A stretch of 63,984 bases of DNA, counting the filler, from Dirinaria sp. TL-2023a (Eukaryota), in the NCBI GenBank assembly GCA_051941275.1. It is 3 parts of 3 records of this genome, joined end to end, with 100 filler letters (N's around TTAATTAATTAA, not from the genome) between each part and the next. Parts side by side here need not be neighbours in the genome. Positions count along the whole stretch, not along the records: positions 1 to 22,739 come from JAVEBF010000215.1; 2 more parts are not named here. One strand, 5' to 3'. Shown piece after piece: positions 565 to 60,916 of this stretch (positions within the stretch are counted from its first letter, which is position 1; every line of letters starts with the position of its first letter). The translations under genes were made by a program, and so were the position numbers. The notes under the pieces were generated by a model. It was not told the DNA's origin. It was given only the letters and a program-made list of their open reading frames with translations, and did not search any database.

Positions 565-3500
565 TCAATACTTGCCGCCCAACAGCCATTCATGGGTGAG
601 TTCCCGAGGAACAGCCTCTCCTGCCCTGCCTTGGCTTCCGGCATGATTCCTCCTGCCCCTTACCCGTGCAGCAGCAGCAGCAACATTAGGCCTCCAACTC
701 TGGTCCGCGTTCTCGGCAAACATGTCCGCGCTCCACGACCTCGCACCGAGGCCTCTCCTGGCAACGGCATCCTCGGCCGGAACATCGCGCTGCAGGATCT
801 CGACGAGGCCCTCTGCGAAGATGCGTCGGACCTCCTCGTCCGCCAGGCCCTTGGTTTCGAGCCCCAGCTTCCGCTCCCGTCTCTTGGCGGCCAGATCGCG
901 GAAGGTGCCGGCGAAGAGGCGCTCCATGGCCTTTCGGAACTCGACGATGGTTTTGGTGGCGTGCGGGCTGCGCGGTTGGACGTAGAAGCTGAGCCAGCGG
1001 TCGATTTCGAGGATGAAGGGTGAGCGACCGCCGCCGCGGAGTTTGCCGCCGAACAGGGCCGCGATGAGAGGGGTCACGGCCGAGGTTTCGCGCAGGAAGA
1101 GGGAGTTCCCGTCGTTGGATTTCGCCATGGTGCTGTAGCTGAACAGGGATCCTCGCTCGATGCCGTCTTTTGTTCGCTTCCCCCCTGGCATCCCGTTGAT
1201 GGACGAGGGGTGGATGATGCAGTACGGCTCCAAGGGAGTTCGGAAGCTTCGGCCACCGTTGTTCACTGCGAGGTTAGGATGTACGCCGGCGAGGACGAGC
1301 GCTTTGATTAGAGGTACCGAATGTGAATTCTCGTTGAGCGAAGGATCGCCACATTCGTCACGGACGCGGGCGTGACGTGGGGTGAATGGGATGAGGCCAG
1401 CTTCGACCAGGATCTCTTCGATTTGTTTGGCCGTGTTTTCGATAGTGTTGAAGGCCCCAGCATGGATGTAGTTCTGATAGGCAAAGTCACGCATGTAGTA
1501 CTCGTTGCGCTCGGAGCGCACGAGGCGCATCTGCCGGACGGCGTTCAAGATGGCAATATGATCGCTCCCTGATCCGTCAACGAAAGAGAGTTTAGCTGCT
1601 TGAGCCTCGCGCCGGGCCTCGAGCGGGTTGATGAAGAGGTTGCGTTCGGCAGCTGCGGCGCCAAGAACCAGCATTGGATCAAAACAACGGAAAATGATGC
1701 CTAGGACGATCATCTTGCCTAGTGATGGGTGGACGGGTAACGCAGCGAGCAAGCGGCCTAGAGGAGTTATTTGCTCTTCGTCTGTCAATGCATCAAGAGC
1801 TTGCAAATTCTTGATCGATGATTCGACTGCCGAAGGCGCTGGAGGCTCGATGGCCGCTGCAAGGAATTCGCGAAGAGGCGACTGGAAAGCTTGAGCCTTA
1901 ACGTCGAGACAGGTTTCTTGCAAGTCAGTACGCAGCATCTCGGGCAAGCCAATGGCTCGCAATGATTCGTAGCGAGACTTGGAGAAAAGTGCGTAATAAT
2001 TTCCGTTTTGCACCCGCCCCGCCCGACCAGCTCTTTGTTTTGAGTTGGACTTGCTGATCCAAGTGCAGTCGAGTTTGGTAATACGTCGCAATTGATCATA
2101 ACGTTTCTCTCGCAATTTACCGGTATCGATGACATGCTGCACATCTGGAATGGTCACTGATGTCTCCGCGATGTTCGTGGATAAGATGATCTTCCTACAG
2201 CCCTTCGGTACTGGATCAAAAACCTCGGATTGGCCTGCAGGCATCGATGAGTGGAGCATGAAAATCTTGAACGCGCTCTCAACGTTGAAATCGACGCCTA
2301 ACGGTAGATTCGCCCGCAGCAGCTTCTCTACCTGTACGATTTCGTCCAGACCAGGTAGGAAGACAAGGATCGCACCGTCGTTGCTGGTCTTGACAATGTG
2401 AGATACGGTAATCGCTACTAGACCGATGGGCACTAGCGCGTCTTCTTTCTCATTCGAAATCATAGCTTCACCTTCAGCAGAGACTTTACGCTCGTGTTTC
2501 CAGTCAATGACAAAATCATCAGGCCGCTCCGTAATTGTCTTAGTGCCGTCGCCTTTTGGTGGGTTCAGTCGCCTAAAGCCTTGATCGAGGCTCAGGTAAT
2601 CGCTCGTTGCTCGATCCAGGCGAAGAAGCTGAATGTCTGTAGGAGAGTATGACGTCTGCAGATCGTCTAGTAAGCCTTCAAGGTATATCTCCCTAACCGG
2701 AAAAGTCCTCCCAGGAACACTGAGTGTTGGGCATTCATTTTGCTCAGCAGCGTTGCTGAAATAAGACGCGAAGAGCTCCGTGTCCATGGTAGCACTCATT
2801 AGTACAACTTTCGGTACGCGCTTCCCTTCTGCTAGCCTCCTAGCTATCACTTTCTTGACAATGATGAGAAGAAAATCGATGAGTACATCTCTCTCATGAA
2901 CTTCGTCAATGACGAGATGTGAATTCAGCTCCATGACTTCATCTGGAAACAGTTGCAGCTGCTGCAGGAGTATACCAGTGGTACAATACACGATGCTGCC
3001 ACCAGGCGGCGGTACCTTGGCATCGAAGCGGACATGATACCCCACAGTCTTTGTTAAAGCCTCTCCTCGTTCCTCAGCAACACGTCGGGAAACCGAGCTT
3101 GCTGCGATTCGGCGCGGTTGAGTACATACTATGTTACACGCTCCCCCCTGACCTTGAGAAACTGCATCCTCGAGAAGGATCTGAGGTATTTGCGTTGTCT
3201 TACCGCTCCCAGTAGCTCCGATCACTATGCTGTAAGGATGACTGTCCACCATTTTCAGGACATGGCCTTTTTGCTGGTTCATTGGTAGCTGCGATCGTTT
3301 CTGACGGATCTCTTCAAGCCTTGGGTTCTGCAGATAATCTCGATAATCGGATTGTAACCGCTGATTTAGATACTCGACTTGCGCATCTGTTATTCTTCGT
3401 CCATACCCAGTGCGTCGCTGATCGATGTTTTCGTCCGATAGCAGCTCTTCGGCTTCGTCAGGCAATCCAGAGTTGCGAGCATCAAGCAGCGTCTGACGCA

Positions 3501-5026
3501 TGCACAAGAGGCAATCCTCGTCGACAGGCATATCGAAAGGTGCCATGGGTTTCAATATGGCACCACTGGTAGACTTATTGGCCTTGAGAAACTTTGGATA
3601 CAAATCCACTTCAAGAGCCTTGACCTCCAATGCAGCGGTCAAGTGAGCTAATGCTTCGGCTCTTTTTTTGTTGTTCATCTCCACAGCTTGTCCATAAGGC
3701 TTGCCATCAATGCTGACTTGAGCGCGGAAAGGCCTGCTTCCAGAAAGGTTCCATTCGGAAACTTCTTGGCTTTCAACAACGACACGAGCTCGAGGATGCA
3801 TAATCTTATAGAAATCGAAGAAGTCTTTCGCGTTGGTTGTAGTCAAGGCTGTAGAATCTTTGATGACGATCGTTTCAGATCCTTGCGCAGCTTGATATTC
3901 TTCAGCAGCTTGTTTGAACTTTAGAGCAGCAGCTATTTCAGCTGTTCTGAGATCCGTGCCTCTCCCGTTGACCTTGATGTTCTGCTCCGCCAGCGCGACA
4001 CCCACTTCAATGAGTTTTTTGGTCTTCCTTCTAGCCCTTACTTGCGAAACCCGCAAGGTTATCTCCGGAATGGCATCGAAGCGGGCGGCATAGTTATAGA
4101 TGTCCAGCTTCGCATCTGCTTCAGCAATCATCGTCTCTTGATCTATCGCAATATCTTTCGGTTCCGACATTGAGGAGAGCTGACCAGTTTGGTGAAGCTT
4201 TGCCAGTAAATGCAACCAAGCAGCTCTTTCGGCGGATTTCTTGACACCGTCAGCATGCTTACTTCAATGGAATGCTAGGACACCGACCTTGGACTGCTTA
4301 TCCTCACCAAACACAATCTCTGTCAAGTCGCTTCCGGAAAATGTGCAGGTTAGTGTGCATCGGATGCCATCATTCCCCACAACGGAGTACTCTGTATGAA
4401 TTTTGGCCATGCTGTCTAGGGCATTGTATAATTGTCCTTTCACGGAGGAAGAGTTCCCGTCCAGGAAAGGGTAGTCCCCTGGTTTTGGTATATGCATCGT
4501 CTCCCGAATATAGGCTTCATCTTTCAGTGGTTCCGAAAGGGGGCCCTCTGTTCGACGCCGCGTAGCTGGCCTTGAATCCGGTTTCTGTTCGGATTTCCGT
4601 TTGCGTTTTTGAAGCGGATGATGGCGGGCGCTGGGCGCAGCGGGTGCATTTGATATCTGATGCTGGGATGCAGACCGTTGCGATTGCTGTTTAAAGGGGG
4701 AGTTTTTGTCGGAAATCGTTTGTTGATTTGCAACTCTGTCGTGATTCGAATGGCGTTGCGACCTTTTCTCTGCGGGTCTCTGGCCATGAATCATAGCGTG
4801 GGCTTGGGCGTTATCATCAGTGTGTAGCGAATCTTGTGTGGTGGATACCGAGCGAGCTTTGAGGAGACTATTTGAGCTTCGTCTAAACATGAGCGCTGAT
4901 ACATTGCTTCGAGAAGTGACTGAGGGCGTGAGACGCGCACGGAGTGCCTAGAATGGACATTCAATAATCAATATGTCATTCACAAGACAGTGGAAAATGA
5001 AAGGTACGAACCAGCGCTCGGTTCAT
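565..5026 (-). CDS. DEAH/RHA-box ATP-dependent RNA helicase, DHX30/DHX36-like, with N-terminal dsRBD-like regions; probably mitochondrial
   Basis: The 1216-aa ORF has [38 protein letters not shown] and QRAGRAGR, followed by HA2/OB-fold-like regions. An intron at about 4241-4288 (GTCGGT...GCTGAC...AAG) joins ORF 4264-4890. A putative micro-exon ATG at 5026 (MNRAL|GTTCGT...TAG|ALRARLTPSV) gives an Arg/Ser-rich N-terminus. Confidence 0.9.
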
Positions 5027-14043: not shown

Positions 14044-16352
14044 CTATAGTACCCACGTCCATACCCATTCCCAGAAGCTCAAGAGATTCTGCTGGCTGAT
14101 GACTCGATCGCGTTGTGATCGGCTGAGCTTCCCCCTCCGTCGTGATGGGTCGCGTCGTACGGCCTTTACAGGATTATTCAAGTCTTCACTCGCGCTCCTT
14201 GACCACTTCAAAGGATTCCATGTACGATCCACTTTCACATGGTATGCTGCGACAAAGATCAAGAAGATCAAAATCTGTCGGGAGATGAGTAACAGCTACG
14301 CCTACGGTTTCTCCGAGAGCCAACTCACACTTATGTACGCCGCGATGAAGTCACCTCCCGAGAATGGATGGAACGTTTGCCATCCATTGAACAAGGCCAC
14401 GAAGCTGCAGGCAAGTAGACCAAACCATGCTCGTACGTATTGCCAGTGAGACTTGTACGGGTAGCTACTCTTGTTTTCTCGATTGTACGCTGCCTGGTCT
14501 TGCTCAATGTTCTGCCCACCGGGCTCAAAGCCTTGGGCGGCTCTCTTGATGCTGCGCTTATTAGCTGACGGCAATGTCATTGGAATTGACGGAACAAGTA
14601 AATTGCTACGCGTACCTTCGGTAAAAGCGCAAATATGCGGAGCATATGACAGCATAAACAATCATGATCGATACCGTTGAGTTGGTAGCCATTCTGCCGA
14701 GCACCTGAGAATCAATCAATCAATAATCCTTGACAACAGCACCTTCTTGCCTAGTATCAACATACGCGAGCGGTGTCACTTCCAGCAGCCAACATCCCCA
14801 GCCACCCAAATAGCCAACTCGTAAAGACTGCAGCTTGAGGTACACCTGACTCGCTTGTGCGCTCGAGCCGTAGTCTTATCGATTGAGCAATTGACCATGA
14901 GGGCCAGACAGCCGGAACGTTGGCTAAGGCATGGAGTAAACGCGAAGAGAGGTACAGTGCGTTGAGACCTGCCGAAGTGGCAGAAAATATGAAGATAGCA
15001 TTGAACAGGCTTGGAAACCCGAGGACACCATCTCGCACCGCAGCGACAATGAAGGCAGAATGCGCCCCGTTGTTTATGGCATTCACATCGGCGTCCCGGA
15101 GTTGAGGGTCATCATAGGGAACATTGAGACCCACGACGAATGCGCCGAGGGTATAAAGCAGAATTATCCGGAGAGAGATTTTTCTAGTTGCGAGTTTGAT
15201 GTTTTCCTCTGTTGCAAGGTCCTTGTTCTCGGGTGCAGTAATCGACACAGCCTCAAAACCGATCATCGAGAATACCGTCACCGTCATGGCCGTCCACATG
15301 GCTGCAAAATGGGCCGTTCCACCTCCATGGATCACGCCAGAGTGGGCCGTAAAGTTTTTGGACTCGAAACTGTAAGGTTGCTGATAATATTTGAAATATG
15401 TTTTTTCACGAGCATTGTTGATAACATTGAACATAATCAGACCCACAAAGAAGACCATTTTAACCACTCCAATCAAGTATTCAATTTCGCCGTAAATACG
15501 GACTGGGAGAAGGTTGATTGATAGTATAAAAATGAGCCAAAGTGCGACGAAAACGGCCGGCGAGACCGATGAGGTCGATGTCCAATCAATTTGGTGTCCT
15601 GGAGGGTAATGGACCGACTCAAGATATCTGGGATCAAAATTGAACCGAAAAAGGTGGGCTACAGCTGTCACCTCTGCAGCGACAATAACCACCCAAGCAA
15701 ACCTACGACTGTTAAGCCTCCTTCAAATCCACAAAGTTGACTCTTCGTATAACGTACCATGACATCCAGCCACACGCGTAGCCGACACCGGCATCCAAGA
15801 ATCGGCTCGGAAACTCGAATATAGCGCCTTTCACTGGGAACAAAGCTGTCATCTCCCCGAGTGAAGCTGTGGCAGACCAAAGGACTGTCCCCATGAGTAA
15901 ATACGTGATCCACGCCAGGCCAGGGCCAGCTAAGTGAATCACTCTTCCTGATTGGAGGAAGAACCCAATTCCAACGACTGAGGAAAAGGCAATCATGTTC
16001 GTATGTCTCTCATCGAGGGCCTTCCTTGAGGGCCAGTTAGTATGATCGCTGGTAAACCAAGCCAAAGCCACAGAACATGCACAGAGAGCTTCACGCTGAC
16101 TTACCTCAATTCAGTCGGAAGGCTAGATGGCTCGATTCCCAACTCGTGCTGAGGTGCATCCATTTCTATGGGATCGAAGCCATCGGTCGGTTGAAGATCA
16201 GGTTTGATCGATGGCACGTCATTTGCGGAGCCGCTGGAGCCAGTATTTTGCGCCATACCATTACTGCGGTTTGTGGATGCGGATGCTCTACTCGTAAGCT
16301 GCGATCGAGGCACCAGAGCAATGTCCTCAGGCCTCGTCATGTTATGATCCAT
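14044..16352 (-). CDS. Amino-acid permease (APC superfamily, YAT-like), divergent
   Basis: Spliced LR|KALDERHTNMIAFSSVVGIGFFLQSG...AGPG, then SLGEMTALFP, YGEIEY, FSMIGFE, VGLNVPYDDPQL, SAGLNALYLSSRLL and GVPQAA; many hydrophobic helices over 5 or more exons. Confidence 0.9.
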
Positions 16353-17124
16353 ATTTTTTCCGCGCTGGGAAGGACGTGCAGGCCCAATGCCAAGTCAAAA
16401 TGTTTGCATGCGAGCGAAAGAGAAGGCCGACCAAAGCCTTACAACAGCAATAAATGGCAGAGCCTCTCTCTACATGATTGACGGTCGACCAGAGCGCAGC
16501 GCACTACAGCCTAATTGATACTGCATGAAGCTTTGCCCGATGTGGCCTCTCTCGCGCCTTGTGGCGTACCTAAGCACCAATGACAAAACGGTTCATGTAA
16601 CTCGTCAGCTGTGCCAAGTCAGCCATCAGCTGAAGATAGTAGAAATGAAATGATCTGGCATGGATTATTTCCACGAGATGTGTCAGGCGCTCTCTCGAAA
16701 GGGTGTGATGGAGCGGGGCTCTCACTGAACCAGACCACTTAGCAAGCTGCGGTGGGTCGAGACTGTTGGCTTAGCGACCATGGAGGCCGCCTTGCAGAAT
16801 GAGGCGTCGTGGAGCGAAGACCGAGGAATGCTACTCATCCCATAGCCCAGTGTAAAGTAATATTGCTCCTCTCACCCGAGGGAAGCGCTGCGAAAGCACG
16901 ATAACCCGATTCGGGACGAAACCGAACCTTGAAAACTATCCATTCTTACTCTTATCCATCATTTCTGAGAGAGATAAATAGGGTTCGATGAATATACATC
17001 ATTCCGAGTCTTACACACTGGAAAGGTTTTGTAACCGACGACTACATTATATATCAAGCGCTGGATCAACGTTTCGGCGAATTCAAGGCGTCATCGCTCT
17101 TCACGGTTCGGTTCAATCAAGGTG

Positions 17125-20100
17125 ATGGGTACTGTAAGTGCCCTATATACTGGAACTTCATGGCTCACGGCATTGATACCGGTCAATAGCAGACCTTGGC
17201 CAACTGCAGTATTTGCGATATTCCGAGGCCGACAGAAAAGTTTTTTCAGTGCTCTACCTGCCGACCTGCTGGAGGTGATTCACTATTCTATTGCGCAGCT
17301 CATTGTTCAGAAACAGACTGCAGCCATGCAGAGAATTGTAGCATCCAGGGACACGAGTCTTGCTGGGATTCTCATCTTCCTAGGAAGGGGCGACAAAGCC
17401 ATCAGAAGCTTGATACCTTTCCAGACTACCTCACTCGGCTCATTCTCCATTCCGAGCCCGATAGTGAGCTACAAGCTCGGCTACATGAAAAAGATCGCAA
17501 AGCTCAGTGGTTCACAGTCACATCTAGCCCTTCTGAAGAATCAGAGGCCACCGTACAGATTACGGACCGCTTTCGCAGACTCTGTGATCCTAGATACGTG
17601 AACAACAGATCCAGCACCGAGCAGTACCCAAGTATTGTCTCATTCATCGGGGATACAGGCGTGGGAAAGTCAACAATCGTGAATGCGATGTCTGTTATTG
17701 GACAGATTGACAGGCAATTAGCAAGTGAATCGACATATTCGAGCTCAATGTCATCTTTGTCAACAAGGAGACCCTCGAATCTGCCTCAAGTTAAGCAAGC
17801 CAGGGAGAATGGCCCTGTTACTCGCTCTGGAGACCCTCAACGTGCAACGGAGCCTACGAGTCTTGGTGTCCACCTGTATCTTGACCCAAATGTCACCAGC
17901 GTTCGATATCATCCCAGCTCAGAGAAAGAAGTAGTGCCGATCTTATTCGCGGATTGCGAAGGATTCCGGGGTGGAACTAACAAAACGAACGCAGAGCGTA
18001 GTGTACAAGGCCCCTCATCGTCGCAACCCAGGCGCTATTCAGCAACATCATTGGCCAGGATGCCGTCTCAATCGAGCTCACATCATGGCAGAAATATTGT
18101 TGATGAATTGGAGATAACTTTACCAGAGATAAGAAATGCGGGCAAAGCAGGCGCAGAGCTATATTATGCCCGATTCTTGTACGCCTTCAGCGATGTGGTT
18201 GTGTTTGTCACCAACAATGATCAGCAATTACATGGAGACATACAGCGCCTATTGGAATGGGCTGCTTCAGCAGTCTATAAATCCATAAATCACTTGCCTA
18301 GAAAAACGCTCATCATAGTGCTAAACATGCCCGGGCGTCACAATCTAGACTATTACGAAGAAGCTTTTCTCAAGAGGTCGTTGTTCGGATCTATGGACAA
18401 TATTTGGGCCACTTCTAAAGAATTAACAGCCTTTAAGCAACGCCACGACAATGAGTCCGAAGTAAGGGAGGGTGAAATTCACAGCAACGAAAGCTTTCTG
18501 AAAATATTCTTTCAAAGCGTAGAAGTCTGTTACATACCTAACAAAGGTTTTGCGACATCTCTAGATGTGATTCGCCAGTATCGATCCTTACGAGAGCGGA
18601 TCGTCCAAGCGGTAGCAGCAGGCCAGCGTGCTCGATCCGTTTCTTGGACTCGTTATGATGTGCCTAGTTTGTCGCATCTTTTCGGTCGTGCATTTCACCA
18701 TTTTGCGAAATTGTCTGGGCCTTTTGACTTCTATACAGCCGCCAGAAAAGATAATCCGATGTCAGTGACTATGGCGGATCATATTGCCAATCTCCTGCGC
18801 TACTTGCAGGCATCAGATCTCCGTTTGAATGGAATCCCTGATGTCGTGGCCATTTGTCTCATAACCTTTGTGCATCGTGACTTCCGACAAGGTACGCCAG
18901 CATCGCACCAAGCACCAATGCTTCATTTTCTAATAGATCGCAGCTATCGAACCTAGTGAAATATTTGATCGAACACTACGTCACGTGTGTGCTCATGGTA
19001 TACAGACATACCAAAACAAGTATCAACGATGTGCATTCATATTCCCTAGCGATGGGCAACGATGCAAAGCAATTAGACTCACGCACCCCGAACACTGTAG
19101 CTCAGGTGCAAGAGCCACCACGATGCCTGGGATCTTCGATTCTTCTGACTACTACGAGGCACCTGGTGATACAATTCGAAAGATCCGAAGCTCCTTCATC
19201 ACAATGTTCAAAGAGCTTTGTTCTCATGGCTCGATGCTTCGGTTAGCTCCACCTAAAAAGGTCGCTGCATATCGATGTCAAATCCTTACCTCCCAAAAGC
19301 TTGAGCAATCGTCCTTTTGGCAGAAATCTAAGAGCAGTAAGACTTGCTTCACATGCCTCCAGTGGGTGCCAGATCACGCATTGCCTTGCGGACATATGTA
19401 CTGCGAGCATTGTGTGAAGGACTTTGGACAGCAATGTGATAGCCAAAGATATGTCTTGGAGATGAATCAGTGTGTTCTGTGCCTTGAATCCTGGAACACT
19501 CAATCGCCCCAGCTGATCAAGTTGAAACCCAAATGCGCAGGAGTCAGAGTCCTTACTTTAGACGGCGGTGGAGTCCGCGGTATTGTTGAGCTTGCGATCC
19601 TCGAAGAGCTCGAGCAGCAAGTCGGACTCGGAGTACCAATCAAGGAACTCTTCGACCTCATTGTTGGAACCAGTACAGGTAAGTGCTAATGGTGAATCCA
19701 CTCGTACGTTGCGTATCACCCGGATGAAGTCTGACTTTCGTCACCTTACCGTAGGTGGTGTCATCGCACTCGGACTGGCGATGACGGAGTATAACATACA
19801 TGATATGAAGACGCAGTTCCTTTTTTTATCCGAGAAGACATTTAAAAAAGACCGTGGGGGACTCCTATCTGCCGTCGATCCTTTCAATGTCTTCCCAGCT
19901 CTTCTCATGGCCATGAAGGCTTGGGAAAGTAAGTATAGAACGACACCTCTACGGGAGGGTCTGATCGACCTTTTTGGTCACAATATGTCAATGTTCCCAG
20001 CTGCGACAACTACAAAGAGTCAAAGGAAGATTAGAGTCGCGGTGACTTCAACAACATCCGGAGATCCTTGCATATTCACCAATTATAACCGACTAGTCGC

Positions 20101-21447
20101 AACTGGTAACTTCACCTAGAATATAAGTAGCACCCAGAGCTAGTGTTCTGATCGTTTATAGACAATAAGGATTTCGAGCGGGAAGACGAGCAATCAAAGG
20201 AGGCTAGAGTCTGGGAAGCGTAGGTTGACCTCTTCTCAAGATTTACATTGGCAGCGTGACTTACACCCGGGCCCACCTAGAGCTCTGGCTACTTCTGCCG
20301 CACCAATATATTTCAAACCTCTCGAACGAGGTTCACCGCCCAAGCTCTATGTCGACGGTGCTTTGCACGCTAATCTTCCTGTCGACTACGCACTGTGGGA
20401 AACACAGAAAATCTGGCCCGCGCTCGGTGCCAGGCGGGCAATCAGTGAACTGCAAGGTGTCACTGATGTCAATGATAACGCCGTAACACTGATCAACGAA
20501 ATCCGTCTTAGTGACCCGCAAGCGAGTGCACGGAGATCAGCATCGATCAATACCGAGCCGCTTGCTTACGGCACAGAAGTCCCCCTTGATATCCTAGTCT
20601 CGATTGGTACCGGAAAGCAGACTCGAGAAGACCATTATCCTAATGCTTTCGAGATTGGGGGCCTGAAACAGGTCTATCTATCCTTCATCAAAGCGTTGGA
20701 CACAGAGTCTGCCTGGGATGATTTCAGGCGCAAGAGATCTTATAACGAATATCGCCATCACCGCCTCAATGTACCATTGCATGGAAGCTACGTCGGCCTT
20801 GATGACTGGAAGTCAATGGATATGCTATACAAAACTGTGCAGCAGTACTATCAAAATTCCGATCAGCAGATGAATGCAGTACAAGATATTGCAGCTCGCG
20901 TCATAGCAAGCCTCCTGTTTTTCGAACCAAATCCTCCGGATATACACCTTCAGCCACCAGACCGCATGCATCGAATTCACGGGCAGATCTGGTGTCGACT
21001 ACCCAAAGGGAGTCATGCACTGATCCTACTAATCGATCGGATCTGCGGTTTCCACTATCTGGAAGAAAATTTGAACTTTCCCAATCAGGATGTCCCGAGT
21101 AAGTGTTTCAGATTCCTTAAACCCGTTGTTAAGTCTTTGTTAGACAACGGTTGTCTGCTTGCTTGTTTTGTCTTGCAACTCAAAGCCTACCCAAGAATAG
21201 AATTGCTGACACGAAATCATTAATAGTACCATTGGTGGATGGATGGAGATCCAGAATCAGGACTGAAGGCGAACACCTCGCAATCCCCATCACTATCAAA
21301 ACGATGGATCCAAACTCACGTATCCACGTAGCTGTAAGGTTGAAAGATGGGAAATATGGATCTGGTCCTGTTTCGGAGAGAACATTTACGATTAGTGGGT
21401 TTCCCATCATATTCAAAGACCTTGAAGCCATTAGCGCTCTGCAGTAA
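17125..21447 (+). CDS. Multidomain patatin-like phospholipase: N-terminal Cys/His Zn-binding region + GBP/atlastin-like P-loop GTPase + RING-like finger + patatin
   Basis: Micro-exon ATGGGTACT|GTAAGT at 17125. Walker A GDTGVGKS and G3-like LFADCEGF. RING-like CFTC...LPCGHMYCEHC...CVLC. Patatin motifs LTLDGGGVRG, DLIVGTSTG|G, ATSAAPIYF and YVDGAL. GT-AG introns at about 18892-18942, 19679-19754, 20106-20161 and 20221-20281, plus one beginning about 21099. Confidence 0.88.
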
Positions 21448-22241
21448 GGCGGACGATATACGATTCGTCCGATCGCTGGATCAGAATCAAGTCACTCGTA
21501 CAAAAATTTCTATCCGTCTGTGAAAAGCTTGTTCTCAATCGATTTCAAACAATTCTGAATCATACATGAATAATAATTCGGACTTCGCAATCATCTCCAT
21601 TTGGGCTAAAATATATCTTTCTACGAGTACATATGCACGAAACGGCTTGATTTTATGAAGCATATAATGTATTTGTTGGCTCAGGCCCGGGAGTCAGTCA
21701 ACTGATCCCAAGATCTGATCTGGGGCAGAATATGATTGAATGAGTGGAATATGACAACGTTTGAACTTCTGCTTCAACAATTGACGTTCGCACATACAAC
21801 ATATTTACGAAATCAATAGAGGTCTCAGAAGATAAACGATGTGAAAGCTAAATGATGCGAGATAGACGATGACATTCGCATGTAATGTTAAATGCTTCAT
21901 AATACGACTAGAAGACAACTTCCGTCTGAAAAATATTTGTACGCTAAAAAAAAGGTCATTGATCGGCAAACAAACATATTATCGAATGAATTCTTCGGAG
22001 GGTCTCTGTTCCATAAAACAATAACAGCTGGCATGGGAGAAACGATCATTGTACGTCGAACAAAGAAAACCCCGTACATATGTTCACAGGGGGGACAATG
22101 CCATTATTCCCCGAGAACACCCAGATATATAAATCATCAACGAATCCCCCTTCCTCTGACTTTCCTTCCTCATCCCTCCATCTACCAACCAATCACTTCA
22201 ACAATACATCCAAAACAAGCCTATCCGCAACTATCCGCAAA

Positions 22242-22580
22242 ATGAATTTCAACTTCGACTCCTTCAACGTGTATCGAATCGAATCTCAAAACCCAATCCA
22301 CGGCTCTATCGCGGACCATCTCGACGCCGCACCAGATGAGGCTTTTTTCCTCATGGTGTACTTCGTCTCCATGACAGCCATGACTGCCTTAAGTATAATG
22401 TATTTGATCGCCCGAGCCGTAAACGCCGCGTTGAATGGCAAACGCGAAGCTATGCTCGAGGCTGTACTGGGAGCTGGAGCATTTTATGCTACGTATTGGT
22501 GTATGGTGTTTTGGTGGTCGGATCTGTCATGGTTGATATTGCAAATGCTAAGAAAGTCGATCGTATTTCCGAGGACATAG
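22242..22580 (+). CDS. Small orphan membrane protein (2 hydrophobic helices)
   Basis: 112-codon ORF from AAAATG with an upstream TATATAAA (~22126) and a CT/CA-rich leader; two hydrophobic stretches. Confidence 0.5.
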   Translation: MNFNFDSFNVYRIESQNPIHGSIADHLDAAPDEAFFLMVYFVSMTAMTALSIMYLIARAVNAALNGKREAMLEAVLGAGAFYATYWCMVFWWSDLSWLILQMLRKSIVFPRT

Positions 22581-22739: not shown

Positions 22740-22839
22740 NNNNNNNNNNNNNNNNNNNNNNNNNNNNNNNNNNNNNNNNNNNNTTAATTAATTAANNNNN
22801 NNNNNNNNNNNNNNNNNNNNNNNNNNNNNNNNNNNNNNN
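22740..22839. other. Artificial contig-joining spacer (N44-TTAATTAATTAA-N44)
   Basis: Exactly 100 nt with a six-frame stop linker in the centre; flanked by homopolymer-rich contig ends. Confidence 0.97.
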
Positions 22840-38381: not shown

Positions 38382-40071
38382 ATCAACAGCAATCGTCGTT
38401 TGAATGAAAAGAATGAAAATATGTAATATGTCATCTAATCGCGAAAAGAGGAAAATCAAAAATAAAAACCCATGGCATTATGAAGAAGGGACTGCATAGG
38501 CATAGTCGAAGGGCGGTGTAGGCTCGATTCTCGATTTCAAAGCGCTGCCTAACGTATGGAATGCATGTCGAGCAGTATCGGGGGATTCTCACATGCATGG
38601 TCCGTCTAAGATGGAAAGATTATTCTTGTTCCCACCGTGCACGTTATGACCGATCCAATGGGTTCTGTCTTTTATGTGTAGCGTCCGAACGTCTCTGCGA
38701 GACTATTCGATCTTGTTACCAAGATCCTATCGCAGAACCATATGCACCTCAGTGCATAATCGAGTAAAAGAGAGAAAATCCGATTGGACAGCAATCACAC
38801 CTTGGCAGCCCATCTCATGCCGCCTGGAACGACCCAAAAGATCTGCCGATTGCGTCGGCGTTTGATGCAGGGCTACTGCATCAAACTGCATCTCGACTAC
38901 TGGCTCCGACGTCCCCTCGATCTTCGTGATCCGGGAAAGATTGCATCTCCTATCAGCTATTAAAAATGGCGCTAGAAGCTATGTAGTGGAAAGCCCCCTT
39001 GGATGGGAGGTGTAAGAAGATCAATTAGCTACATAGAACTCCCATGAAGACAGCCACACCACTGGAAAGAAATTTATGCCTAAGAAGAAGAGCAGCACGC
39101 GAAAACGAAAATTCAGAATAGCGAACAATCTAATCCATTGGAAAACTTGCTCCAAAAGTGATCTACTGAGTAATGTCCTTGAGTCTTGGGCCTTGTTCCC
39201 TAGGTGGGAATGAGGTTATACATTCGAGAGATGATCTATACAGCGGCAGCTAATCTTAAGTTGTTTAAAAACCATTGATCCAGTATCTACAACGACCAAA
39301 GTACATGGACTTTTGAGACAGCTCGATGTTCGATAAAAATTCTCGAGGTTTTCGGTTCGGATCGATTTCGACTGAAACACGATGATCTCGCATATTGCAA
39401 CGGCGGCAACCTGAATGAATATGACATAGTGGTCGCCTCTCTGAGTCATTTGTCAGGTGATATCTTTTTCTCAGGGTATCTATCTGATGGTGCTGCTAGT
39501 TCAATCAATGGTGGAGAACGTCGGCTTTTTTCAGATTGGAAACGAAGAGAAGGAATGCAACTTTTGGGCATGTCCCAAACCGTCAATTTCTGGTTAAGTC
39601 AAAAGCTGTTGACGCATTTTGTCCCAATTTTTGGAAGTCAAAACCTAGCCTCCTGGGTAATGGAAGATTAAATCACTTGAGCTGAGGAGATACACATTTG
39701 TCTGAACAAACAGACGTGATTTGCTGTCAGATGGCTACCCGGATAATTCCCCTGCAGCTTTGGATGTGTACTTGTTTCGCCACCATATTTAGCCACCTCA
39801 CATTCCTCGCTTCAAGATTTGCGGACTCCGCAACTCCGTGCCGCTCTTTTCCATCACCGAAGTCCTTTGTCACCTATACTGCAACAAGTTCAGGTACGGT
39901 CGCCCTCAACAATGGCCACCACGAGCAAACCGCAAGCGGATGACCGGATTCGGCCATTCTGGTCTCTGCGCCAGATGACAGCCTGCACGTATATCCATTT
40001 GACGCATCCATACGCGCAATGGTTCTCTATCATCTCTCCCTTACGGACCGCGCAAGCTCGATTCGCTCACG

Positions 40072-42459
40072 ATGTCGTCCTCGGAAGAGCCGCCCTCGCC
40101 CAAATCCTCAGTACTCCGTCTCCCCGCCAGCGCCAGCACCGCACCACAAAAACCCTCAATAGCGCCCTTGGCTTTGCATCCTACAGGGTCTCAAGCCTTG
40201 GTTTCGCCGACTGAACTTTCTCCAACACCGGTCCCGTCTCGCGCTTCTTCAACGACGCTTCCGCCCGATCTCGCTCTCGCACCTTACAGTCTCAGCACTT
40301 CCAGCCGAAAAAGCGATCGCTTCTCCATTTCTTCCGAATCTGAGGATGAGACGAGGTACGGAGCAAGTCACCACGAGCACGGTAGGAACGCAATCCAGCG
40401 AGCCAGTGGCGGTGAGGATAAACATGACAACGAGGACGCAGAGAGTCGCTATCCAGAAGGCAGCGACACGGGGATCAGGAATGCACGGAAGGCGAGCGGT
40501 CCGAACTGGTTCAAAACGCCCCCACGCACACCGCAGACAGCCGGCGAGTTCCCTATGGCCGAAGTGATAACTCCGGCGGCAGGCTCGAGGGCTGCGCACA
40601 GTGGATCCAGCACAAGAGGAATGATTTCGCCGCGTGAAGTTCGCACCTCTGTTTCTACGTCCAGCAGGAAAGGCAGCGGCAGCACAGGGCCAGAGCGGCG
40701 TGGCAGCGAGGCTAAATCCTGGGCTGAGATATACGAAGCCCGTGCCCTCGCTGCTCAGTCCCAGCACTATCCAGACAAAGAGGATGAACACCCTATCACC
40801 AGGACGACGATAGAAAGGTACCCGAGTACGAGCACTAGGGCGATGAAGAGCCCCTCGAGCCCGTACCCAGAGGATGAGTTGCGGACGCCCACCACAGTGG
40901 CAAGCTTGAAGACGGTGGCAACAGCATCCACAAGTGCCAAGGCGGAGAGGGCATTGCATGTCCCATTTTTGCCAAAGTTCTTGGGCTTGGCTGCTAGCAA
41001 AGCGGCGACTGAATATCCTAGAGACTCGTCACAGGATGAACAGCGCGGGAAGAGCTCTGATGCTGGTGTGCAGAAAGACGTGGAAACCAAGCAATGGCAT
41101 GAAGAAAGAGGAGAAGCACAGGCCCTGCAGAGCGTCTTTGAAAGTAATACCAGCGAAGATGAAGATCCGGCCGAGGTCGGAGAGGCAAAGACAGCCAGAA
41201 GTGGAAGTCCGAAGATGGTCACTAGAAATCCAAAGGAGCGCAAATTCAACCTCAAAGAGATGCTCCTCAGCGAAGCCCCTTCAACATCTTCCGCTACCAC
41301 TCCCACCTCTAGGAACCCTGGAACACCTAGAAAGAAGATAGCCTCTTTCCTCGGCGAAAGCGTCAAGTTCGGTTCGAAGCGTGAAGGCGTTGTGGGTATG
41401 TCTGAGCCAGACACAGAATATCATGCTCCCTCGCCAAAGACTATGAAGTCTATACGTGCAAGCGAGGTAGGCGTCGCTATCTCCCCAGGCTTGAATAGCT
41501 CAAGTGGAGCGCGCTCCGAGCCAGCTCGTAGAGCAAAGACGACACCGGGTCGCGCCAAAAGACGCGTTACATTTCCACCACCTATCGAGATAGGACCAGA
41601 ACAGAGGGAGGTAAGGCCGAGTATTGTGAGTACGCCTTATCCGCTGGGTCATCCAAAGGCAGGAGAACAGCAGCAAAGCTGGGAAAAATTAGGAAAGACG
41701 AAAGATATCTTGACCCTGGTACTTCAATCCGCCGAGGGCCCGCCTGAAATCAGAAGAATAGTCATCCCAGGTCCCCAAGAGACGGTGATGGTAGATGATA
41801 GCGAGGGAAAGAAGCCGATGGCGATGGCAACGCTTCGGAAGGACTTTGACGACGAAGCACTCTTCAAGCTCTTGAAGGCGGAGTTCAAAACGATGCGAGG
41901 GGTCTCGAGAAGATTCGCAAGTGCAAGAAGAAGCAGGGGCATAGTACTGTTACCTTACCGGGATATGTCAGACCTAGGAAAGCACAGCGGGTTGGCATAT
42001 CGGAACCGAGCCTTCGGTGCCGAAGAAGACTTCCTCCTCGAAGCACGTCTGCTCCATCTCTTCCGCAACCCGAAACTCGGGCGACGAAAACACCAATGGA
42101 CGGAATGGGTCAGCAGGCTCCCCGGCAACACCAAAGCCGTCAGCGATCACAGTGACAACGTCGCCATCGAACTCGTCCAAAGCTGGTCCGTCGCTGGCAT
42201 CACGCTCGCCACTACCTTGGTCTTGGTCCTGAGCCTCGCAGCAACGTTGCTGTGGATCTTCCTCGGCAAAGAAAATACTTCTGTGGTTTCCTTTGCGCCG
42301 ATTGATCCTGACCAGTCTCTCGGCAGTGGAGTAGATAGTAGTATCTATCGCGACCGCGGCGACAGGGTTGTCACCGGTGTTGCGATCGGGGTGCTCGTGC
42401 TGCTTTTCGGATGGGTCGGTGTAGGAGCGTGGGTCCTGCTGAGCTGGTTGGCGGGTTGA
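40072..42459 (+). CDS. Hypothetical protein: long Ser/Pro-rich disordered N-terminus, C-terminal globular segment and two TM helices
   Basis: Single 795-aa ORF; C-terminal DFDDEALF...IELVQSWSVAGITLATTLVLVLSLAATLLWIFLG...VTGVAIGVLVLLFGWVGVGAWVLLSW. Confidence 0.8.
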   Translation: MSSSEEPPSPKSSVLRLPASASTAPQKPSIAPLALHPTGSQALVSPTELSPTPVPSRASSTTLPPDLALAPYSLSTSSRKSDRFSISSESEDETRYGASHHEHGRNAIQRASGGEDKHDNEDAESRYPEGSDTGIRNARKASGPNWFKTPPRTPQTAGEFPMAEVITPAAGSRAAHSGSSTRGMISPREVRTSVSTSSRKGSGSTGPERRGSEAKSWAEIYEARALAAQSQHYPDKEDEHPITRTTIERYPSTSTRAMKSPSSPYPEDELRTPTTVASLKTVATASTSAKAERALHVPFLPKFLGLAASKAATEYPRDSSQDEQRGKSSDAGVQKDVETKQWHEERGEAQALQSVFESNTSEDEDPAEVGEAKTARSGSPKMVTRNPKERKFNLKEMLLSEAPSTSSATTPTSRNPGTPRKKIASFLGESVKFGSKREGVVGMSEPDTEYHAPSPKTMKSIRASEVGVAISPGLNSSSGARSEPARRAKTTPGRAKRRVTFPPPIEIGPEQREVRPSIVSTPYPLGHPKAGEQQQSWEKLGKTKDILTLVLQSAEGPPEIRRIVIPGPQETVMVDDSEGKKPMAMATLRKDFDDEALFKLLKAEFKTMRGVSRRFASARRSRGIVLLPYRDMSDLGKHSGLAYRNRAFGAEEDFLLEARLLHLFRNPKLGRRKHQWTEWVSRLPGNTKAVSDHSDNVAIELVQSWSVAGITLATTLVLVLSLAATLLWIFLGKENTSVVSFAPIDPDQSLGSGVDSSIYRDRGDRVVTGVAIGVLVLLFGWVGVGAWVLLSWLAG

Positions 42460-45575: not shown

Positions 45576-45675
45576 NNNNNNNNNNNNNNNNNNNNNNNNN
45601 NNNNNNNNNNNNNNNNNNNTTAATTAATTAANNNNNNNNNNNNNNNNNNNNNNNNNNNNNNNNNNNNNNNNNNNN
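45576..45675. other. Artificial contig-joining spacer (N44-TTAATTAATTAA-N44)
   Basis: Identical structure to 22740-22839. Confidence 0.97.
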
Positions 45676-56328: not shown

Positions 56329-57175
56329 ACGTCTGAAGTCAGATCTCGGTCGATACCACCTATCGCCCAAACCCACCTAATGGTGGGAGCGAGGTGGAAC
56401 GGCGGCCCTAAAAGTCAGCTTACGGGGAACGACCGCTGAGACTGCCGCGGGAACACACGATCTCTTGAAGAATTGCAGTGAACAAGGAACGTGTATAGAT
56501 GGAAAAACAGGGATGATCGGAAGTTTCTGATAGCTTTATGGAGCCGGACCTAGAAGTTCTGGGGTTGTCTTGGGGGAAGAATCTAGTATTGGATTGCCGG
56601 CCAGTACAGTAGCCTTTCAAAACAATATTCCTTATGCGATGTAGGGAATAGATCTGGTTTTCTGTTCGCACATCTACTCAGCTGCAAAGTCTTAAGTAAA
56701 GCCCTTCCTGGTCTTTTCCAGAAGGATTGTAATTGATTAAGCAAGTTCAGCTCATTTCTTTTGTCTCTCTTATTGCTCAGCCTTCAAGCTCATTACCTCC
56801 ATAATTTGTGAGGCAACGTGTTCTCGTTATTTTTATGACCAAGCTACGTAAAAGACTTAGCATTCGTAGTTTTTGTGCAGGATGAGTTAGGTCTCATTCC
56901 GGATTTGGAGGATCAAATCTTTCAAACACTGTTGATGGCAAGGGGACTTTAGTGAGGACGAAGCCAGTCTCTACTACGCAGCTACACAGTCAGGATAGAT
57001 AGGAAGTGGATATTAGTGCCTCTAGGGTTATGTGCTAGGGTATGCTTCGGAGAACTTAGCGCCAGAAGCGCGCGGCAAAAATCCTGTTACGCCACACCAG
57101 TTGAGCCACTATCCAAATCAGTGCTCTGACTCCGTAGGTAGAAGCAACAGGTGCTCTACGAGCACTCAGCGAACC

Positions 57176-60100: not shown

Positions 60101-60916
60101 ATGGCCGACTTCCCCATGGAGCCTGCACTAGCCAAGGTCCTCATCTACAGCGTGGACATGGGTTGCTCGGACGAAATTCTCAGTATAGTGGCCATGTTGA
60201 GCGTGCAAACGGTCTTCTACCGGCCCAAAGAGAAACAGCAGCAAGCAGATCAAAAGAAGTCCAAATTTCACGACCCCCACGGCGATCATCTTACACTACT
60301 AAACGTGTACAATGGGTGGAAAAGCTCGCGGTTCAGCAACCCGTGGTGTTTCGAGAACTTCATCCAAGCGCGGTCGATGCGGCGTGCGCAAGATGTGCGG
60401 CAACAGCTGGTCTCCATTATGGAGAGATACAAACACCAGATCGTCTCGTGCGGCCGAAACACGATGAAAGTACGGCAAGCGCTCTGCAGCGGATTTTTCC
60501 GGAACAGCGCGCGCAAAGATCCACAAGAGGGTTATAAGACGCTGATCGAGGGGACGCCGGTATACATGCATCCCAGCAGCGCGCTGTTCGGGAAGCCGGC
60601 GGAGCATGTGATTTTCCACACGTTGGTGCTGACGACGAAGGAATACATGCATTGCACCACTGGCATTGAACCGAAGGTATGTCACTCAAAAGCTCTGATC
60701 TCCAATGCTGTGGTTTGAGCACGAGCTAACGTGTAGTAGTGGCTCGTGGAAGCAGCGCCTACGTTCTTCAAGGTCGCGGCTACGGATCGGCTGAGTAAGA
60801 GGAAGAAGGCGGAGAGGATCCAGCCGCTGCACAACCGCTTCGCCGGGGAAGATGACTGGCGCTTGTCGGCGCAGAAGAGGCAAGGGCGCGGTGGTGGAGG
60901 TGGGACTTGGGGATGA
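57176..60916 (+). CDS. PRP22: Pre-mRNA-splicing DEAH helicase Prp22/DHX8
   Basis: N-terminal [12 protein letters not shown] region, S1 domain (DFGAFV...GLVHVS), [29 protein letters not shown] and QRAGRAGR. One intron at about 60677-60738; final exon ...[22 protein letters not shown]. Confidence 0.97.

Follow-up and report, generated by a model that had tools for sequence, protein, structure and literature searches.

The GBPs are immune GTPases (guanosine triphosphate hydrolases) in animals, and in GBP and atlastin proteins the G4 motif is 'RD', which gives guanine specificity. Amongst patatin lipases, VipD (Legionella) and ExoU (Pseudomonas) are inactive until Rab5-GTP or ubiquitin, respectively, binds, and iPLA2beta carries N-terminal ankyrin repeats before its patatin domain. 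In RNF112, GTP hydrolysis is accompanied by movement of a helical middle domain and by dimerisation in the transition state (PMC12012479), and the patatin NOD-like receptors (NLRs) of fungi act in allorecognition cell death (PMC9156397, citing Heller 2018). Here we describe a gene from a 63,984-nucleotide stretch of DNA (hereafter the window) of Dirinaria sp. TL-2023a (GCA_051941275.1) that brings elements of these systems into a single chain. Positions 17125–21447 (+) hold a single gene of this lichen-type fungus, which is expressed, has seven exons and encodes a protein of 1297 residues, and our analysis establishes its structure and splicing, three folds and the strict conservation of the catalytic and ligand residue sets. 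The protein may be a self-contained phospholipase that is gated by nucleotide and has an E3 ubiquitin ligase built in, a reading to which we give a probability of about one half.

Gene structure and expression

The initial annotation had proposed a spliced frame with four modules, and the motifs it quoted, including FLYAFSDVVVFV, were all found in the frame given. The model consists of seven exons (17125–17133, 17190–18891, 18944–19678, 19755–20105, 20162–20219, 20281–21098 and 21227–21447) which splice to a frame of 3894 nucleotides, with 1297 codons, no internal stops and a TAA stop codon at 21445–21447. The six introns are all GT..AG and 52–128 nucleotides in length, short introns of this kind being in keeping with the fungal character of the DNA. 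In the unspliced sequence, the frame 3 open stretch at 17190–18956 (588 residues) has the Cys/His cluster at its start and then GDTGVGKS, PTSLGVHLY, LFADCEGF and FLYAFSDVVVFV, the frame 1 stretch at 18937–19689 has the RING, GGGVRG and GTSTG, two frame 2 stretches (19562–20119 and 20162–21223, the latter including DGA) hold the remainder of the patatin domain, and the protein C-terminus lies in a further frame 1 stretch at 21133–21447.

Exon junctions were read from the sequence and then checked against the closest relative, P0001 from Letrouitia sp., with which the model shares 64.8% identity over 1262 aligned residues. Junctions 2–5 were gap-free within 8 residues in this alignment, and 13–15 of the 16 flanking residues were identical at each. 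A different intron 2 (donor GTGCAT at 18870 with an acceptor at 18936, and also an acceptor at 18956) was dropped after the comparison with P0001, with RNA joints supporting 18892–18943, and a 35-nucleotide intron 5 (20220–20254) was dropped because it disrupts the frame.

For expression we compared positions 17000–21600 with RNA from four runs of a single study (at most two samples, labelled lichen metagenome). Contigs 95–99% alike to the window were obtained from three of the four runs, with none from the fourth (X4). After allowing for a cut offset, the joints in these contigs correspond to intron 2 (18889>18942, 52 bases skipped, two runs), intron 3 (19676>19753, 76 bases, three runs), intron 4 (20104>20161, 56 bases, two runs) and intron 5 (20219>20281, 61 bases, three runs). 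A 338-nucleotide contig runs from exon 2, which encodes the G and middle domains, into exon 3, which encodes the RING and the beginning of the patatin domain, and a 569-nucleotide contig links exons 3, 4, 5 and 6. The zinc module, G domain and most of the middle domain lie on the uninterrupted exon 2, while exon 3 takes in the rest of the middle domain, the RING and the first part of the lipase. Because contigs and exons bridge the domains in this way, separate transcripts for the G-domain and patatin halves are not supported within the reach of the contigs, and to that extent (introns 2–5 joined) the single transcript expected in the initial annotation is borne out.

No contig from the three RNA runs crosses the entire gene, and none covers introns 1 and 6 or either transcript end (within 17000–21600, cover is missing from the first ~300 bases and from the last ~290). 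The least certain part of the gene model is exon 1 and intron 1 (17125–17189, +), where the start codon, a three-codon exon (MGT) and an intron at 17134–17189 (GTAAGT..CAATAG) were read from the sequence without an RNA contig; if exon 1 is left out, there is no in-frame ATG for the zinc module. We counted 74 differences between the window and the RNA contigs, and among the 40 listed, 21 are synonymous and 19 protein-changing, the latter mostly in linker regions. The synonymous share can be taken as a rough sign of moderate purifying selection.

A G domain with the predicted fold of the atlastin and GBP proteins

The region around the P-loop was modelled by AlphaFold2 (AF2) using exon 2 with 38 relatives in the alignment (predicted local distance difference test score, pLDDT, 79.7; predicted template modelling score, pTM, 0.81). 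The model predicts a large GTPase domain of the atlastin/GBP/Sey1/SMG9/RNF112 type at residues 103–515 (17487–18725, +). In a Foldseek search of the PDB, RNF112 was the first match (9jjx_B, E = 7.7e-8, with 9–12% identity), followed by atlastin-1 and -3, Sey1p, GBP1 and GBP2 and the SMG1-8-9 chain, with E values for the clade ranging from 7.7e-8 to 1e-4. We also compared the exon-2 model with all representative structure chains using VIA-align, where the highest scores were to atlastin-1 (Z = 20.7 over 279 residues, with a root-mean-square deviation, rmsd, of 3.8), atlastin-3 (20.6), SMG9 (19.5 and 19.4), Sey1p (19.5), GBP1 (19.4) and GBP2 (19.3), and then RNF112 (16.4 over 254 residues), Drosophila atlastin (16.3) and SMG9 in SMG8-SMG9 (15.7). 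The first chain from outside this clade was Arl13B (12.0), and the gap of almost four Z units, together with the cover of residues ~100–520, assigns the modelled domain to the dynamin superfamily and, within it, to the GB1/RHD3 clade. The Z scores are tied inside the clade. Atlastin, GBP and RNF112 were matched here again by a second model, that of a full-length Morchella relative (P0030; 38% identical). The initial annotation had recognised a GBP/atlastin (GB1/RHD3) GTPase from the order of motifs alone, and the modelled fold supports this (Z = 15.7–20.7 within the clade vs 12.0 for the next chain).

The domain has the G1 motif GDTGVGKS at residues 157–164 (17649–17672), a putative switch-I Thr226 (17856–17858), the G3 motif DCEG (17952–17963) and Leu-Asn at the G4 position, at the end of the matching strand (18321–18326), all on the plus strand. 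Thr226 and DxxG are assigned by order and by position in the model, without residue-level superposition. All 39 sequences compared contain GxxxxGKS and, in DCEG, the D, E and G, and 37 of them have the switch-I Thr of PT[TS]xGVHLY; in a wider set GxxxxGKS and D-x-E-G are both kept in 58/58. As modelled, then, the protein uses the fold and phosphate-binding machinery of the GB1/RHD3 clade. PADLOC matches of the G domain to mad3 (E = 9.4e-5 to 1.3e-5) and LeoBC (8e-4) were left unused, since they span little beyond the P-loop.

A helical middle domain is predicted by the models to follow at residues ~516–599 (18726–19029, +), where it is split by intron 2 (18892–18943). Helices occupy residues 457–564 of the exon-2 model and 404–542 of the P0030 model, and the alignment with Drosophila atlastin reaches residue 546 of the exon-2 model. 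A two-copy prediction of exon-2 residues 95–515 with GTP and Mg, which was made without controls, scored 0.00 and 0.00 and is uninformative either way.

The RING finger and the Cys/His clusters

A C3HC4 RING is encoded at 19345–19482 (+), with the spacing C-x2-C ... C-x-H-x2-C-x2-C ... C-x2-C and all eight Zn ligands present (C705, C708, C719, H721, C724, C727, C747 and C750). If His is accepted as the eighth ligand, each of the eight ligand columns is kept in 54–57 of 58 relatives. The family profile matches TRIM and RNF RINGs with E values of 2.8e-4 to 4.5e-3, the best being RNF141, TRIM5 and TRIM21 in the PDB (2.8e-4 to 3.8e-4). Scores for the Pfam model zf-RING_UBOX (cut-off 25.2 bits) were 14.9 for the window exon, 21.7 for P0001 and 25.7 for P0115. 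Ligand spacing, conservation and profile matches support the C3HC4-like RING of the initial annotation as a conserved finger and predicted E3 ligase.

The N-terminal Cys/His zinc module (residues 9–65; 17205–17375, +) was identified by its ligand pattern and column conservation, and comprises C9, C12, C24, C27, C38, H41, C42, C47, H49, C53, H58, C61 and H65. Six Cys columns and one His column are kept in 39–48 of 58 relatives, and the remainder are mostly N-terminally truncated models. This cluster had been called B-box-like: it is present and conserved, but the matches of that kind are sub-threshold and come from two distant relatives only (CEBP_ZZ, 7.8e-6, and an ANCHR-like B-box, 4.8e-5), with no Pfam match to the module in exon 2 itself at E ≤ 0.1, and we regard the B-box label as a lead. 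A second conserved cluster (C600, C611, H618, H621 and C622; 19030–19098, +) lies between the middle domain and the RING. Its invariant columns (in P0030, C546 and C558 in 58/58 and H569 in 57/58) suggest that it is probably a further zinc site.

The patatin lipase and C-terminal domain

The identification of the patatin (PNPLA) lipase domain is unambiguous. It spans residues ~771–1163 (19543–20914, +), is crossed by introns 3, 4 and 5, and is recognised by Pfam, PDB profile and fold. Two exon pieces scored 29.0 and 27.8 bits with Patatin PF01734 (cut-off 27.7 bits) and P0001 scored 85.3. The oxyanion loop GGGVRG (from residue 778; 19564–19581), the nucleophile motif GTSTG (from residue 812, with Ser814; 19666–19756, split by intron 3) and DGA with Asp977 (20354–20362) appear intact in the sequence, in agreement with the catalytic set described in the initial annotation, and are kept in 57–58 of 58 relatives (G-T-S-x-G in 58/58 and GGGxRG in 57/58, with D898-G899 of P0030 invariant). 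The nearest solved relatives of the domain are CapV from the cyclic-oligonucleotide-based antiphage signalling system (CBASS; profile E = 2.3e-31) and iPLA2beta (1.3e-26), and the PADLOC models for CBASS phospholipase effectors matched P0001 at 1.1e-38. The P0030 model matched CapV in Foldseek at 6e-16 (target template modelling score, TMt, 0.71; 22% identity), and TMt values for its patatin part vs CapV, patatin-17, CapE and iPLA2beta ranged from 0.39 to 0.77.

A C-terminal alpha/beta domain from an unnamed family is predicted by the P0030 model at residues ~1164–1297 (20915–21444, +), crossed by intron 6 (21099–21226). These ~130 residues fold confidently in P0030 (strands between 1037 and 1154, pLDDT mostly >80), and no Pfam family was found for them in the window exons or in P0001, P0003 and P0036; in an ESM Atlas search the nearest clusters were unnamed Ascomycota proteins. 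The full-length P0030 model has a pLDDT of 85.4 and a pTM of 0.86 over 1183 residues, and the latter value points to one compact body and not to beads on a string.

Distribution of the protein family

A full HMMER pass of exon 2 against 1.84 billion representatives gave 560 matches at E ≤ 1e-3, of which 257 passed E ≤ 1e-10 and 64 passed E ≤ 1e-30, numbers well in excess of chance; many of the short matches are exon fragments. Another search with exon 2 gave at least 51 long proteins of 1019–2136 residues, of which 50 have PF01734 and 46 have PF28431, a domain named DUF8392 in the ESM Atlas, such that part of the protein is already filed by Pfam as a domain of unknown function. The patatin domain is found at about the same position in 37 of the 38 long relatives scanned and a different effector in none, and the architecture is therefore fixed and not shuffled among effectors.

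A profile search recovered at least 117 proteins at E ≤ 1e-10 and, among the matches listed, every named one is from the Pezizomycotina, the closest relative belonging to the Teloschistales. The genera listed include Letrouitia, Coniocarpon, Trichoglossum, Geoglossum, Cenococcum, Lindgomyces, Phyllosticta, Cladophialophora, Fonsecaea, Elaphomyces, Aspergillus (A. pseudodeflectus), Hyaloscypha, Oculimacula, Podospora, Coniochaeta, Xylaria, Fusarium, Colletotrichum, Morchella, Ascobolus and Orbilia. Paralogues are represented by three Fonsecaea erecta proteins and many Fusarium groups, and the mean column identity across the family is 22–27%. Six Fusarium clusters of 1394–1519 residues (P0204, P0206, P0209, P0210, P0215 and P0224) have N-terminal ankyrin repeats in addition to DUF8392-patatin; we note that their layout recalls the ankyrin-plus-patatin arrangement of mammalian iPLA2beta.

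No NACHT or NB-ARC match was found in Pfam searches of the window exons and of three close and 38 distant relatives, and no sensor repeats (WD40, ANK, TPR or LRR) were found on the window protein or the 38 long relatives. With both defining NLR features absent, the protein is by its sequence no NLR. Literature searches aimed at PF28431, DUF8392 and a guessed Podospora tag (Pa_3_10000) returned no papers. What we describe is a new architectural variant of known domains, within a fungal family which is both uncharacterised and large, with 257 representative clusters at E ≤ 1e-10 and with named members in many filamentous ascomycete genera, including Fusarium and Cladophialophora/Fonsecaea.

A sister subfamily lacking the P-loop

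Many Pezizomycotina also have shorter proteins of ~930–990 residues (P0269–P0296, and the metagenome locus L023) that form a sister subfamily. P0273 matches the family profile with a probability of 100 (E = 9.4e-91, 919 aligned columns) and retains the RING, the region of the G-domain fold and the patatin domain with GxSxG, and the zinc module, P-loop and DxxG are absent; in the subfamily DCEG is replaced by DGDL or DSDI. At L023 the gene lies at L023:7612–10306 (+), with ferric reductase frames at L023:4678–6044. The upstream frame of this gene was matched to the G domain by hhalign (probability 99.3, E = 4.7e-20), with GKS deleted and DCEG changed to DSDI. In the public models P0269 (Pyrenophora tritici-repentis) and P0283, the protein is fused to ferric reductase domains by merging of the two genes.

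Among the genes carried by Starship giant transposons are 'PLP' genes of about 3.0–3.4 kb, annotated with PF01734 only, which adjoin DUF3723 and ferric reductase genes (PMC9156397), and Starship elements are present in lichen fungi of the genus Xanthoria (PMC13486527). The size and neighbours of the sister subfamily fit, and it may be the Starship 'PLP' gene, though we regard this as suggestive. No gene identifiers common to our matches (sister subfamily or family) and the accessible part of the PMC9156397 supplement were found. If the link holds, the family would inform what the Starship 'PLP' does.

Genomic context

The gene is flanked by an amino-acid permease (14760–16110, −) and short unannotated frames, and the wider window includes two DEAH helicases, a thiolase, a TFIIIC subunit, an MFS protein, a GH35 beta-galactosidase, a protein kinase C and a DUF3533 protein. 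A scan of the window's 19 largest open frames (E ≤ 1e-5) detected no NLR, HET, DUF3435, DUF3723 or ferric reductase. Nine long metagenome loci carrying relatives were also compared. An ammonium transporter is directly upstream and on the same strand in four of the nine (L001:5944–7796, L004:2397–3767, L006:7575–8978 and L017:4436–5974), the flanks are Med13 and NOL10 in two, GH43 and MFS neighbours occur in two (one of them also with the ammonium transporter), ferric reductase is upstream in one (L023), and DUF3723 or DUF3435 in none. Most copies are thus at stable chromosomal places. Because the ammonium transporter adjoins the gene, the public models P0020 (2136 residues) and P0040 (1620 residues) look merged.

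Other features of the window are recorded here for completeness. The DEAH/HA2/OB-fold RNA helicase genes are at 568–4263 (−) and 57026–60715 (+), the second with an S1 domain and Prp22-like, and both are housekeeping genes. The nearest downstream neighbour is a 187-residue open frame (22017–22577, +) with hydrophobic stretches and no Pfam family, and a further open frame of 818 residues (40003–42456, +), with no Pfam family at E ≤ 1e-5, lies where GC content and AT skew are highest in the window (GC 0.554, AT skew 0.228). Runs of N are found at 22740–22839 and 45576–45675, as four runs of 44 N in two pairs with 12 bases between, and represent masked or gap sequence, the first pair being ~1.3 kb downstream of the gene.

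Proposed mechanism and alternative explanations

The nucleotide-gated phospholipase we propose would be a soluble multi-enzyme protein of ~1300 residues, in which an atlastin/GBP-clade switch with its middle domain, a RING and a CapV/iPLA2-like patatin domain share one body. Nucleotide (GTP, or possibly another nucleoside triphosphate, NTP) would alter the conformation of the G and middle domains, probably with G–G dimerisation by analogy to atlastin, GBP and RNF112. This change would gate the active site of the lipase (Ser814/Asp977) or its access to membrane, and the RING would ubiquitinate its own chain or a nearby target. Assembly-linked activation of this type of lipase has a precedent, since CapV and CapE were solved as ligand-bound filaments. 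We infer the nucleotide specificity, the dimerisation, the coupling of the domains, the membrane used as substrate and the biological role, which could be in organelle or membrane surveillance, defence included.

A number of observations weigh against this proposal. No GBP, RHD3 or dynamin Pfam model was found on exon 2 at E ≤ 0.1 (P-loop matches were sub-threshold only, to IIGP at 0.01, RsgA, MMR_HSR1, AAA_29 and ABC) and no GBP/RHD3 match in P0001, P0003 and P0036 at E ≤ 0.01, and in a comparison of the family profile with all PDB sequences, the sole matches of the P-loop part were to P-loops of ABC and HflX proteins (E > 0.01). Where GBP and atlastin have the G4 'RD', the family has V-(R/L)-N, with Asn in 34 of 39 sequences, His in five and Asp in none (Leu-Asn in the window protein), so that the nucleotide bound would be GTP or possibly another NTP. 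The P-loop Arg is absent, exon-2 positions 157 and 158 being G/S/C and V/A, with Lys in 4/39; this Arg is required for hydrolysis in Xenopus RNF112 and is common to ATL1 and GBP1, and is not kept in all RNF112 proteins (PMC12012479). The window protein has no transmembrane (TM) segments and no CaaX box that could account for membrane targeting, and the sole hydrophobic peak of the protein is the buried nucleophile elbow of the lipase. The sister subfamily keeps the fold, RING and lipase without P-loop or DxxG, which implies that the domain can serve without nucleotide hydrolysis. Finally, literature searches aimed at the family or the domain combination found no description of the architecture.

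Two other explanations concern the biological role. The initial annotation had inferred an executor of immunity or cell death, in which GTP makes the protein oligomerise, either on a membrane that is foreign or damaged or once non-self has been recognised, and so unleashes a lytic lipase under ubiquitin control, and our evidence does not favour this, neither supporting nor excluding it, and we consider it unlikely. The closeness of the patatin domain to bacterial CBASS effectors (CapV, PADLOC and Foldseek E values of 2.3e-31, 1.1e-38 and 6e-16), the immune function of GBPs and the use of patatin as an effector domain in fungal NLRs (PMC9156397 and PMC4986451) are all in keeping with such an executor, as are the paralogues in several genomes (Fonsecaea erecta and Fusarium), the protein-altering share (19 of 40) of the differences listed between the window gene and a close relative, the ferric reductase neighbours which the sister subfamily shares with Starship PLP genes (these would also fit an accessory role) and, as weak evidence, the patchy Pezizomycotina set of named holders among the matches listed. 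They are set against the absence of sensor domains and repeats from the window exons and the close and 38 distant relatives, the fixed architecture (37/38), the 21 of 40 listed differences that are synonymous, window neighbours such as the DEAH helicase, permease, thiolase, TFIIIC and PKC genes, and stable synteny (Med13–NOL10 in 2/9 loci and a place after the ammonium transporter in 4/9). The same core-genome context and conserved synteny would suit housekeeping lipid remodelling by a regulated phospholipase A, which would turn over endoplasmic reticulum, lipid-droplet, peroxisome or mitochondrial membranes as an analogue of iPLA2beta/gamma, with the GTPase and RING providing targeting and turnover. 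We find this doubtful and about as likely as an immune role: the patatin profile matches iPLA2beta (1.3e-26), some sources label relatives 'calcium-independent phospholipase A2', some Fusarium paralogues have N-terminal ankyrin repeats like iPLA2beta, the catalytic motifs are strictly conserved, and atlastin, Sey1 and RNF112 are membrane remodellers and not immune proteins (PMC12012479), but the family is divergent (22–27% mean column identity) and, among the matches listed, none is named from outside the Pezizomycotina and many well-studied genera are absent, where a core enzyme would be expected to be distributed more widely.

The remaining explanations concern the G domain and the origin of the gene. 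It is rather improbable, in our view, that the domain is a structural or ligand-sensing scaffold for the RING-patatin part, binding adenosine triphosphate (ATP), xanthosine triphosphate (XTP) or nothing. A scaffold would account for the replacement of the RD-motif Asp by Asn or His in 39/39 and the absent P-loop Arg, as well as for the retention of the domain by a sister subfamily without GKS and DxxG, and GTPase activity is weak in human and mouse RNF112 (PMC12012479); however, GxxxxGKS and D-x-E-G in 58/58 and the switch-I Thr in 37/39 are hard to explain without nucleotide and Mg binding. We would place still less weight on a grander version of the immune explanation, in which the protein is a single-chain fungal counterpart of the GBP system (an NTPase that assembles on foreign, damaged or non-self membrane, a RING that tags it and a CapV-like lipase that destroys it) and the pseudo-GTPase sister is the Starship PLP; if it were true, the Starship 'PLP' auxiliary gene would gain a first mechanistic handle. 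That the window copy is itself a cargo or auxiliary 'PLP' gene of a Starship is scarcely credible. Starship PLP genes do lie beside DUF3723 and ferric reductase genes (PMC9156397), the elements occur in Xanthoria lichen fungi (PMC13486527) and a related subfamily adjoins ferric reductase genes, but the 19 largest window frames have no DUF3435, DUF3723, ferric reductase or NACHT (E ≤ 1e-5) and the neighbours are housekeeping genes, DUF3723/DUF3435 is found at none of the nine related loci, and the window protein, whose P-loop is intact, groups with the long subfamily and not with the short one adjacent to ferric reductase. The nucleotide-gated phospholipase remains our preferred reading. The family is a natural system in which to ask whether switches of the GBP/atlastin type can control an enzyme in cis and how CapV-like lipases are controlled in eukaryotes, and an immune role, if true, would mean that cell-autonomous defence in fungi has a branch outside the NLRs.

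Comparison with known systems

RNF112 (neurolastin/ZNF179) likewise unites in one chain a C3HC4 RING and an atlastin/GBP-type G domain with its helical middle domain. This vertebrate, brain-specific member of the dynamin superfamily is without a lipase, whereas the window protein has one; the G domain is at 148–463 in the solved RNF112 chain, and in the window protein the RING comes after the middle domain. The P-loop Arg needed by Xenopus RNF112 (PMC12012479) is missing from the window protein. The wider clade of atlastin-1/3, Sey1p/RHD3, GBP1/2 and SMG9 resembles the predicted window G domain in fold (Z = 19.3–20.7, 254–279 residues, rmsd 3.2–4.8) and in the common order of G1 GxxxxGKS, switch-I Thr, G3 DxxG, hydrophobic strand and helical domain. 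It differs from the window protein, which has Leu-Asn at G4, no P-loop Arg and no TM segment or CaaX box, and to which zinc modules, a RING and a lipase have been added.

Amongst the lipases, CapV/CapE and iPLA2beta have GGGxRG, GxSxG and DGA in common with the window protein. CapV and CapE are stand-alone proteins of 300–364 residues, activated by cyclic nucleotides and forming filaments (according to PDB entry titles), whereas the window lipase is one domain of a 1297-residue chain that also carries an NTPase and a RING. The fungal patatin NLRs (PLP-1/HET-Z) also combine patatin and a nucleotide switch in a filamentous ascomycete, but they do so with an NB-ARC/NACHT module of the signal transduction ATPases with numerous domains (STAND) class and TPR, ANK or WD repeats, both of which the window protein lacks; when one such NLR from Lecanora helva (P0268) was compared with the family profile, the match extended over 19% of its length and was confined to the patatin part. 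The sister subfamily (P0269–P0296 and L023), in contrast, is homologous over nearly its full length, without the zinc module, P-loop and DxxG. VipD and ExoU are bacterial and are trans-activated by host proteins, and any homology to the window protein that we propose is confined to the patatin fold. The presence of a GTPase and a ubiquitin-ligase finger in the lipase chain nevertheless suggests, by analogy, that the logic of VipD and ExoU may here be in cis.

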